A DNA stretch of 64,000 bases, taken from IMG/VR virus record IMGVR_UViG_3300031134_000001, positions 96,001 through 160,000 of that record; one strand, 5' to 3'. The notes beneath the pieces were generated by a model. It did no database searches and was not told the origin of the DNA. It worked only from the letters and a program-made list of their open reading frames with translations. Positions 10,596 through 13,078 of the stretch are shown here, piece by piece (positions within the stretch are counted from its first letter, which is position 1; each line of letters opens with the position of its first letter). Source of the stretch: a virus (taxonomy: Duplodnaviria; Caudoviricetes). Position numbers and translations under genes: made by a program.

Positions 10596-11051
10596 TTACG
10601 AGCGATAATCGGGACAATACACCGTCACAGTCATGCTCGTATCTTTGAGGAGTTCTTCGATCAAAGGTTTTACCTCACGATCAAAGTCAAGCCCTCCTTT
10701 ACCACAACCTAGTGCAGGCAGTGCCACACTTTCAATGTCATTGCGCACGCACCAGTCCAGTAGTTTCAGTAATCCATCGCGAACAATGTCCACAGAAGAA
10801 TCATTCCACCACCGCACTTTGGTGTGCAAGCAATACACCACAAAGCCATCAGCTCTAAATAAGAACGGAAACATCTTCTCAGGCGCATGCTTCTTACAGT
10901 GCACACGAAACCGATCGAAGAATCTAGGCACTCGCATACGAAACGCATACGCTAGACCATTTCCCATCACGCCGCCGGCGTTGGTAGGACAGACCAGCAC
11001 TTGGGCAGTATCCTTAAAGATGTCGCCCCGTTCAATATAGCGAATACCCAT
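10596..11051 (-). CDS. Macrodomain protein (DarG/Appr-1-p-processing-like ADP-ribose hydrolase)
   Basis: GDIFKD...LVCPTNAGGVMGNGLAYAFR and SVALPALGCGKGGLDF are the canonical macrodomain ADP-ribose-binding loops. Confidence 0.85.
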   Translation of the reverse strand: MGIRYIERGDIFKDTAQVLVCPTNAGGVMGNGLAYAFRMRVPRFFDRFRVHCKKHAPEKMFPFLFRADGFVVYCLHTKVRWWNDSSVDIVRDGLLKLLDWCVRNDIESVALPALGCGKGGLDFDREVKPLIEELLKDTSMTVTVYCPDYRS

Positions 11052-11060
11052 GTCACCCCC

Positions 11061-11501
11061 TTAGTTCACACGCATAGCTGCTTGCATCTTCTCAAGCTCA
11101 CTCGCAGTATGTGCCTCTTGGGTATTTTTCTTCCGTCGACGCTTTTCTGCAATGCGCCGGATCATCTCCAGTTCATGACGTGGTTTGCTGATGTAAGCAT
11201 CCCATTGCATATACTGGAAAATCTCTAAATCAAGGAAGTGTTCGAAATGGTCTTCTAAGAGCGTCCCGACGTAAGCATCTTCGGCAGGACGCAGCTTAAC
11301 CAAGGAAGCTGGGTTTAACGTCAACTCATCTTTGGTGGCCAGACCATAACGAACCAGATAGGCTTTGTGAAGTAACTGGGTTACCTGCACTGCACTTAAC
11401 CGCCCGCGGTGCGCCAGCTCTGGCTGGATAGCACTTAAGAACACATCGATCACGAGTGTCAGATCCGTTTGGAACTCGGCCCCGAAGTTCGGGTGACACA
11501 C
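11061..11501 (-). CDS. Conserved hypothetical protein; probable 'T' moiety of a frameshifted tail/baseplate assembly chaperone
   Basis: 146 aa from a GTG with no SD. The frame stays open upstream to 11624, across a slippery site in the preceding gene. Confidence 0.55.
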   Translation of the reverse strand: MCHPNFGAEFQTDLTLVIDVFLSAIQPELAHRGRLSAVQVTQLLHKAYLVRYGLATKDELTLNPASLVKLRPAEDAYVGTLLEDHFEHFLDLEIFQYMQWDAYISKPRHELEMIRRIAEKRRRKKNTQEAHTASELEKMQAAMRVN

Positions 11502-11515
11502 GTGACTGATGACGT

Positions 11516-13078
11516 CTATGGACGCTGACGGATTTGTTGGATCTTTTGGTAAAGGAGGCTGAAAAAAACAGACACCGGGTCGATAGGGATGATGTTCTCG
11601 AACCGTGGCAGGACTTTGTCGCTTTCATCGACGTGCACCTGCGGCACTGCAACGATCGAGACCATCGAGTCGTTGATGTATTGCTGCACTGCCTTGTAGT
11701 ACTTGTCGCGCACCACGTCGTCGCTCGACATGTTCGAGATCGTCATCTCCAGCGTGGGCCGGTCGACGATCTGCTTGCCCAACTTCGGCATGTCGATGCT
11801 TTCGATCCAGTGAACATACTGACGCATCGACGTGGCTTTGGCACGATCGTAGATCATGTCATTGCGTTGCTTTTCCGTCAGGTCTTGCGCGAACGCGTTC
11901 GTGACAGACTGCACCAGTTCATCCACCCAGCGCTGACCCGAGTTGAGGTATTCGTCAACGCTTGGCGTACGCAGCGTAATGCCGACTTCGTCGCTGAGCA
12001 TGATCGTTCGACGCTTGCCGACGACGAAGTGATCGCGGTAGATCGGCAGCGATGCTGGGTTCATCGAACCGGTAACGCGCTGCGCCATGTGACTGACTTG
12101 CCAGTCGTTCAGGCAGTTGCGATCGGTGTACAGGCACGTGCCCACGTTCAGCAGTTCCCGCACCACGGTGGTTGCTACGCCACGCGCGTCGAGCAGCGCA
12201 CGTTCGAACTGGAAACCTTTCGGATACACAGCCGCAGCCAAACCCCAGGCAATTGCTGGGATGTCCATGGCGTTGATCGCGCCGCGGATCTTGTCGGTAG
12301 TGTTAAAACCGGCGACCGTGGTTTCGAACATGCTGCGCATGGCCAGATCAACGATCGCGCTGTTGGTTACCACCACGTGGTTGGCGAACGTCAGGCCGTT
12401 GGTCGAACGACCGAAGTTGATCTTGTTGTCGCTGATGTGTTGCAGGGCGTCGAGCAGTTCGATTTCACCCGGCGACTTGACCGTGATCCAGAAGCCCGAA
12501 TGCCAGAGTGGGATCTGGACGATCGAGCCACGACCCAGCAGAGCACTCACGCGCAGCATAGCGCGCTCGCCGGTCAACAGAGGACCTTCATCCCCGCCGA
12601 ACTTGGGTGTTGCCAACGACATCGCACGACCGCCATCCACAGGCGAAATTTGCTGTTGCCAGTTGGCGCCTTCACGCTTGGCTGCCGGCAGGGCGTTGTC
12701 GTGGAACGAACCGTGGTTAATGCCGAGCGATACCGATTCTGCCCAGTTTTCACCCTGTGCGCTGTCGACCATGCTGGCTGCGTGCGGGTTCGTCTCGCCG
12801 TAGTTCAGCGTACGTGCCACGGTGTCGGGCGGCAAAGCGATGGTGGTCGCCAGATCATCCCACTGGTCGCCCAGCACGCGGTAGTACGGCGTGGTGATCG
12901 TGGCGTTGTTCAGTGGTTCTGGCGCAGGCCAGCTAAAGCTGCTTTCTGCATCGCCTTCAGGCGCATCTTCAGCGGGAATGCCAGCCGGTGCTGACACGGG
13001 CGACGACAGATCGATTTCTTCGAGTTGCGCTTCGGTCGACACAGCGACCGGTGCTTTATCAGGATCGTTAATTTGCAT
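11516..13078 (-). CDS. Conserved Chimalliviridae protein (phiKZ gp77-like by position); putative tail/baseplate assembly chaperone
   Basis: 520-aa ORF with strong coding bias, acidic disordered N-terminus, ending IIPIDPVSVFFSLL. Function inferred from the frameshift architecture. Confidence 0.6.
   Translation of the reverse strand: MQINDPDKAPVAVSTEAQLEEIDLSSPVSAPAGIPAEDAPEGDAESSFSWPAPEPLNNATITTPYYRVLGDQWDDLATTIALPPDTVARTLNYGETNPHAASMVDSAQGENWAESVSLGINHGSFHDNALPAAKREGANWQQQISPVDGGRAMSLATPKFGGDEGPLLTGERAMLRVSALLGRGSIVQIPLWHSGFWITVKSPGEIELLDALQHISDNKINFGRSTNGLTFANHVVVTNSAIVDLAMRSMFETTVAGFNTTDKIRGAINAMDIPAIAWGLAAAVYPKGFQFERALLDARGVATTVVRELLNVGTCLYTDRNCLNDWQVSHMAQRVTGSMNPASLPIYRDHFVVGKRRTIMLSDEVGITLRTPSVDEYLNSGQRWVDELVQSVTNAFAQDLTEKQRNDMIYDRAKATSMRQYVHWIESIDMPKLGKQIVDRPTLEMTISNMSSDDVVRDKYYKAVQQYINDSMVSIVAVPQVHVDESDKVLPRFENIIPIDPVSVFFSLLYQKIQQIRQRP
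11561..11567 (-). other. Candidate -1 programmed ribosomal frameshift heptamer U UUU UUC
   Basis: The minus strand reads GTT TTT TTC (V-F-F), 14 codons before the stop of 11516-13078. A -1 slip enters the open frame of 11061-11501. Confidence 0.55.

Follow-up and report, generated by a model that had tools for sequence, protein, structure and literature searches.

A conserved recoding site, most likely for -1 ribosomal frameshifting, in a core gene of phiKZ-like jumbo phages

The slippery site at which phage P2 extends E to E+E' is T_TTT_TTG, a U-run near-identical to the T_TTT_TTC sequence that is the subject of the present study. In the G/GT pair of phage lambda, a conserved -1 shift close to the 3' end of the first open reading frame (ORF) joins the next ORF to it, so that short and long forms are produced in a fixed ratio (PMC5009743), and frameshifts of this kind in tail chaperone genes are kept across a phage group despite sequence divergence. 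Phage T7 gene 10A/10B provides another example, in which a -1 shift has been described on G_GUU_UUC (Condron, Atkins and Gesteland 1991, as given in PMC5009743). Here we examined a 64-kb stretch of jumbo phage DNA (hereafter the window), corresponding to positions 96001-160000 of virus record IMGVR_UViG_3300031134_000001 (271,026 bp, direct terminal repeats), and in it a gene of the phiKZ gp077 family, whose 3' end overlaps an open -1 frame leading into a conserved downstream domain. From comparative sequence data, we estimate at about 0.78 the probability that this core gene is subject to programmed recoding at a conserved site, most likely by -1 ribosomal frameshifting. The features of the locus, in window coordinates, are the following:

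13078-11516, minus strand: zero-frame ORF encoding the short product of 520 amino acids (aa), from ATG 13078 to TAG 11518-11516
11567-11561, minus strand: slippery heptamer T_TTT_TTC, the proposed -1 shift site, formed by the last base of Val504 together with Phe505 and Phe506
11519-11560, minus strand: dual-coding overlap of 14 codons, from the shift site to the zero-frame stop
11516-11518, minus strand: zero-frame TAG stop, end of the 520-aa form
11061-11561, minus strand: -1-frame extension of 166 codons, with its stop at 11063-11061
11499-11501, minus strand: GTG, sole canonical start candidate for an independent downstream ORF, not conserved
11444-11511, minus strand: local RNA hairpin around the GTG, starting ~56 nucleotides (nt) 3' of the heptamer

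Codons 504-506 read GTT TTT TTC, with the heptamer in X_XXY_YYZ phase 42 nt ahead of the TAG, and both tRNAs can re-pair on T_TTT_TTC in this zero-frame phase, as expected of a -1 frameshift heptamer. The -1 frame contains no stop from 11624 to 11064 (187 codons) and leads into a conserved coding region that runs for 166 codons in the window and 151-192 codons in relatives. Its translation past the heptamer is QPPLPKDPTNPSASIDVISHVCHPNFG, giving a predicted fusion of 506 + 166 = 672 aa. The first ATG, GTG or TTG in the downstream frame is the GTG at 11501, which has no Shine-Dalgarno-like sequence before it, and the first ATG lies 117 codons past the shift site. An initial annotation, made from the sequence alone, had reported GTT TTT TTC with a slippery heptamer at 11567-11561, a stop-free -1 frame from 11624 to 11064 with a fusion of ~672 aa, and a downstream ORF with only a GTG start and no Shine-Dalgarno sequence; these features are all borne out, the heptamer being present at exactly those coordinates and in phase.

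The 520-aa protein matches phrog_4585 (E 1.3e-94) and has homologues in 220 phage records by tblastn, all of them phiKZ-like jumbo phages, including phiKZ gp077, PhiPA3 gp074, 201phi2-1 gp136, EL gp47 and Goslar gp081. The gp077-family gene is Chimalliviridae core gene cg18, listed as 'hypothetical protein' by Prichard et al. (PMC10299810 supplement). The downstream frame matches phrog_12109, with a profile alignment that begins 7 residues upstream of the GTG, and bears a conserved HVxHPxFG motif; homologues of this extension are PHIKZ076.4, PhiPA3 gp073, 201phi2-1 gp135, EL gp48, Goslar gp082 and RAY gp266. The partner in phiKZ is thus named PHIKZ076.4 and is not gp76.

A total of 45 usable loci were compared, comprising the window, 29 IMG/VR contigs, four close relatives recovered via their proteins, and 11 named loci (FLC9, RSF1, PhiPA3, PCH45, phiKZ, 201phi2-1, Goslar, RAY, SPN3US, a Vibrio phage and EL). 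These cover the lineages of phiKZ, EL, SPN3US, Goslar, PCH45, RAY and the Vibrio phage. At every locus (45/45) the downstream ORF occupies the -1 frame relative to the upstream gene, and this frame is invariably open from the conserved Phe-Phe of an FF(T/S)LL motif to its own stop, 151-192 codons on. The heptamer is T_TTT_TTT at 29 loci, T_TTT_TTC at nine and G_TTT_TTT at four, with the remaining three degraded. The first Phe codon is TTT in 45/45 loci, and T is the last base of the codon before Phe-Phe at 38 of the 42 heptamer-bearing loci, regardless of genomic GC content or of the amino acid encoded (Val, Thr, Ala, Tyr, Ser, Leu or Gly). With the first Phe codon always TTT, and a T ahead of it whatever the amino acid, selection acts on the nucleotides and not on the protein alone.

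Depending on the locus, the zero-frame stop follows the site by 24 to 132 nt. The conserved HVxxPxFG motif is likewise reached over spacers of at least 12 different lengths, every one of them in frame. A frame relation and T-run present in all 45 loci over at least 12 spacer lengths are more than chance would produce. At 12 loci a -1-frame stop is found just 1-4 codons upstream of the T-run (for example, four codons in phiKZ and two in PCH45), which pins the shift to the run itself. The longest of 57 homologues called by a gene finder is at most 622 aa, indicating that the two parts have never been fused in frame. The initial annotation had made its case dependent on the heptamer and the -1 relation being kept in family homologues, as they are.

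One further contig, L042 (IMGVR_UViG_3300011972_000001), was left out of these counts. Its gp077-family ORF (~1500-2600) is broken early by a stop at 1737 and resumes, 302 codons in the +1 frame; the break may be an assembly error or a second frameshift.

In the proposed mechanism, most ribosomes would translate GTT TTT TTC without leaving the zero frame and terminate at TAG 11518-11516, releasing the 520-aa protein. A minority would slip back one base on U_UUU_UUC, with the P-site tRNA-Phe shifting from UUU to UUU and the A-site tRNA-Phe from UUC to UUU, and would continue with CAG CCT CCT in the -1 frame, adding 166 residues to produce the 672-aa fusion. In most family members this slip would be the sole route to translating the conserved N-terminal part of the downstream domain, and would therefore generate a short and a long isoform in a ratio set by the site. 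The predicted tryptic junction peptide is FPHLIPIDMLSTFFYFGGLEVK in phiKZ, and the junction peptide predicted for the window's phage is FENIIPIDPVSVFFQPPLPK. We infer that the slip is ribosomal rather than transcriptional, and both isoforms are presumably needed.

Database records annotate the two ORFs as separate genes, and without recoding the downstream ORF would be an independent gene, read from GTG 11501 in the window and from other starts in relatives, that shares the -1 frame by chance. The hairpin holding the GTG could then regulate initiation, and possible starts do exist elsewhere, with an ATG just past the upstream stop in RP12 (L039) and another after HVxHP in three close relatives discussed below. 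However, the window's GTG is GTC in 7/7 close relatives, and 31 of the 35 motif-bearing loci have no start ahead of the conserved motif, their first ATG, GTG or TTG falling after the start of HVxxPxFG. The first start is at least 30 codons past the site in 25/44 loci, reaching 85 codons in phiKZ and 136 in L030. Across the eight spacer codons past the zero-frame stop, pairwise substitutions number 51, 49 and 105 at -1-frame codon positions 1, 2 and 3, the same pattern as in the gene body; by this measure the spacer, ahead of any start, has evolved in the manner of a coding region, and the -1 frame is kept in each of at least 12 independent spacer lengths. Synonymous-codon identity among eight close relatives is 0.85 in the last 15 codons of the upstream gene against 0.45-0.67 in the gene body, as expected because dual coding should constrain such sites. 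In database records the downstream gene is assigned lengths of 74 to 182 aa, in some cases with an overlap into the upstream gene, as would be expected where no start precedes the conserved motif and gene callers have to guess one. We consequently consider two separate genes very improbable. A sequencing error in a homopolymer or a recent frameshift mutation, splitting one gene in the assembly, is scarcely credible: homopolymers are error-prone and L042 has a broken upstream ORF, but all relatives conserve the zero-frame tail past the run (SLLYQKIQQIRQRP and equivalents) together with its stop, no in-frame fused homologue was found, and the same layout occurs in the independently sequenced isolates phiKZ, EL, SPN3US, Goslar, RAY and PCH45.

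Several observations weigh against a ribosomal -1 shift at the site. It is a T6-T8 homopolymer in 42/45 loci, at which transcriptional slippage could also operate: phage or host RNA polymerase would add one U at the T7 run in some transcripts, which would then encode the same 672-aa fusion. T runs of 6-7 are nevertheless short for efficient slippage by bacterial RNA polymerase, for which runs of at least nine are typical. The run ends in C at nine loci and comprises only T6 at six, including all four with G_TTT_TTT, variants that point to the ribosome, and RNA-seq contigs of a phiKZ-type phage from three studies span the site unbroken, with the T7 unchanged and without indels, these being consensus sequences that are blind to a few per cent of slipped transcripts. 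In favour of slippage, UUUUUUU is rare in all frames of E. coli genes, which has been attributed in part to this process (PMC4066793). Likewise, no ribosomal stimulator was found, whether as a 3' structure 5-9 nt away or as a 5' Shine-Dalgarno sequence: the 60 nt past the site contain no conserved RNA structure (44 loci; mean z -0.3), upstream Shine-Dalgarno-like motifs are not enriched (5/44 loci versus 19% at control positions), and only a weak 4-bp stem is present near the site in the window. A stimulator is common yet not obligatory for -1 frameshifting. In E. coli, heptamers of the type H_HH.U_UU.Y are among the most efficient, U_UU.U_UU.C/U supports >0.1% frameshifting without a stimulator, and the U_UU.U tetramer is itself shift-prone (Sharma et al., PMC4066793). 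Taking both sides together, we regard transcriptional slippage as an unlikely source of the fusion. The eight-member clade formed by the window and its seven close relatives offers evidence both for and against frameshifting. In this clade L015, L016 and L049 have the heptamer degraded to GTT TTT ATC, GTT TTT ACC and GTT TTT TCC, retain the U_UU.U tetramer, and are the only members with an ATG directly after HVxHP. Since these three lack the full heptamer and have their own ATG, the extension domain can probably function unfused, and there may be family members that do not require the fusion. At the same time, the correlated loss of the heptamer and gain of an ATG supports recoding, and looks as if expression of the extension domain had been freed in evolution from its dependence on frameshifting. 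The degraded regions are located at L015:2919-3000, L016:2985-3070 and L049:3542-3620.

The hairpin enclosing the GTG, also claimed in the initial annotation, is real by folding (~11511-11444), and the 132-nt stretch containing it has a minimum free energy of -35.5 kcal/mol (z = -2.7). It was rejected as a frameshift stimulator, being ~56 nt from the heptamer and thus too distant for the classical type, and relatives conserve nothing comparable. A small CUGC-UCGN-GCAG stem, derived from Leu-Leu-x-Gln codons, occurs at many loci but is absent from the window's clade. A 5-bp hairpin, GCGUC-CAUA-GACGU, lies at 11512-11525 (minus strand) with the zero-frame UAG partly in its loop, and is shared with only some of the close relatives. 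The ATA at 11519-11517, overlapping the TAG, was also considered as a reinitiation site and rejected, the codon being GTA or TTA in 5/7 close relatives.

Reference records treat the downstream gene inconsistently. The PHIKZ076.4 annotation begins at an internal ATG and covers 80 aa, leaving ~85 conserved codons unannotated (phiKZ NC_004629, L051, 2727-3230), and in RAY the annotated gp266 overlaps gp267 by 136 nt (L054, 2601-3149).

The gene neighbourhood comprises non-virion RNA polymerase subunits, a superfamily 2 helicase, a macro-domain gene, gp78 and gp79 homologues, a virion RNA polymerase subunit and a DNA polymerase. The region is not a tail module, and genes for tube or tape-measure proteins are absent from the vicinity. 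The macro-domain gene stands alone at 10596-11051 (minus strand; PF01661, E 1.4e-8; phrog_335), directly downstream of the extension, and is found in the same place in close relatives L046-L049 and in Goslar (gp83).

Sequence-profile searches of Pfam, NCBIfam, PHROGs and the PDB gave no functional annotation for either protein beyond PHROGs of unknown function. The predicted model of the 520-aa protein is confident (predicted local distance difference test, pLDDT, 88; predicted template modelling score, pTM, 0.86). No solved structure was matched by Foldseek against the PDB at E <= 0.001, and the best Z in a wide VIA search was 5.3, on a helical segment only. Residues ~170-510 of the model resemble predicted structures annotated as T4 gp26/gp51-type baseplate-hub assembly proteins (PF12322), with Foldseek E values of 4e-5 to 1e-2, probability 1.0 and template modelling (TM) scores by target of 0.42-0.56. 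A PF12322-annotated model in the ESM Atlas, which contains predicted structures only, was matched with a TM score of 0.59 over 238 residues, and the nearest named Atlas clusters likewise carry PF12322. T4 gp26 and gp51 themselves both match PF12322 strongly (E 8.8e-64 and 3.9e-52) and are therefore paralogues; their genes are adjacent and divergently transcribed (L057, NC_000866, 7803-9229).

The extension is modelled as all-helical with a long C-terminal helix (pLDDT 78). A fold search with this model recovered only its own orthologues and generic long-helix matches, the sole chaperone among them being insignificant (E 4.9). A complex prediction for core and extension scored 0.43 against 0.00 for the best control, a weak result that we do not use as evidence of binding: the score mark is reached by 58/80 solved complexes and 2/110 mismatched pairs, and, unless there is a good prior, passes at or below 0.60 are wrong more often than not. 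The predicted interface sets the HVxHPxFG motif against core residues 202-235, which include nearly invariant positions.

From these models it is possible, although we hold it only tentatively, that the gp077-family protein is a virion-assembly factor related to the T4 gp26/gp51 hub assembly proteins, and that its extension docks onto a conserved core surface. The PF12322 fold resemblance lends some indirect support to a role in assembling the tail or baseplate. Three points count against such a function. The window's 520-aa protein has no match to the PF12322 hidden Markov model (HMM), its link to gp26/gp51 being one of predicted-structure similarity only; an hhalign comparison with a 22-member gp51-family alignment gave a probability of 0.3; and the Churi homologue of gp077, gp256, is listed among early-detected proteins (PMC11849849), which fits late assembly poorly. 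Among 57 homologues, two match the PF12322 HMM weakly (best E 0.008, below cut-off), the phage's own genome contains no PF12322 match, and hhalign of the family profile against T4 gp26 and gp51 was not significant. Because this profile-profile comparison was non-significant, we treat the PF12322 relationship as a lead only. The 201phi2-1 gp136 and gp135 records carry no mass-spectrometry note and that of the neighbouring gp138 does, and Goslar gp81 and gp82 are not named in the virion structure paper.

Full-text literature searches and database annotations revealed no description of the site, in agreement with the initial annotation, which had known of none; the 2016 recoding review (PMC5009743) does not mention phiKZ or jumbo phages. 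If the frameshift is confirmed, one core gene of a much-studied phage family would have two protein products instead of one, and the downstream gene would be mis-annotated, either too short or from an arbitrary start (in phiKZ, the 80-aa PHIKZ076.4 versus a 165-codon extension). This would have consequences for core-genome counts, for the interpretation of knockout and transposon sequencing (Tn-seq) data, for proteomics search databases and for structure prediction. Deeply conserved -1 frameshifting on a bare U-run without a recognisable stimulator would also be useful for understanding what sets frameshift efficiency, and the locus offers an entry point to the function of a core protein with a confident predicted fold and no solved counterpart.

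Compared with the known systems, the locus resembles lambda G/GT in having a conserved -1 relation near the end of the first ORF that would fuse the next ORF to it and give short and long forms, and resembles tail chaperone frameshifts generally in being kept across a phage group. In contrast, the gp077-family products would be 520 and 672 aa, versus ~140 and 280 aa for tail chaperones, and are encoded elsewhere than between the tail tube and tape-measure genes. Neither protein matches a chaperone family in Pfam, PHROGs or NCBIfam, and the pair has no sequence or fold match to known chaperone families. The initial annotation had proposed a G/GT-type tail chaperone pair; its recoding component is upheld, whereas membership of the chaperone family fails on size, position and homology, with some indirect support for a tail or baseplate assembly role from the weak PF12322 fold resemblance.

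T7 gene 10A/10B is similar in its U-rich site near the 3' end of a long ORF, in that a minority of its products carry a C-terminal extension, as proposed for the gp077 family, and in the absence of a classical nearby stimulator. It differs in that the T7 product is a capsid protein with an extension of ~50 aa, whereas the gp077-family extension is a conserved 166-aa domain, predicted to be folded and recorded in databases as a separate gene. The T4 gp26/gp51 proteins show a weak resemblance to this family in predicted fold, and T4 gene 26 also yields 26', just as the gp077-family gene would yield two products, but they show no significant sequence-profile match, are about half as long as the gp077-family protein, and 26' is produced by internal initiation rather than frameshifting (annotation in NC_000866). 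A more speculative reading, which we think improbable at present, is that the short and long cg18 products of all nucleus-forming jumbo phages are the functional counterpart of G/GT-type chaperones, built on a gp26/gp51-like scaffold. If true, this would link two classes of tail-assembly factor thought to be unrelated, and would explain why a tail chaperone frameshift has gone unrecognised in both phiKZ-like and T4-like myophages.

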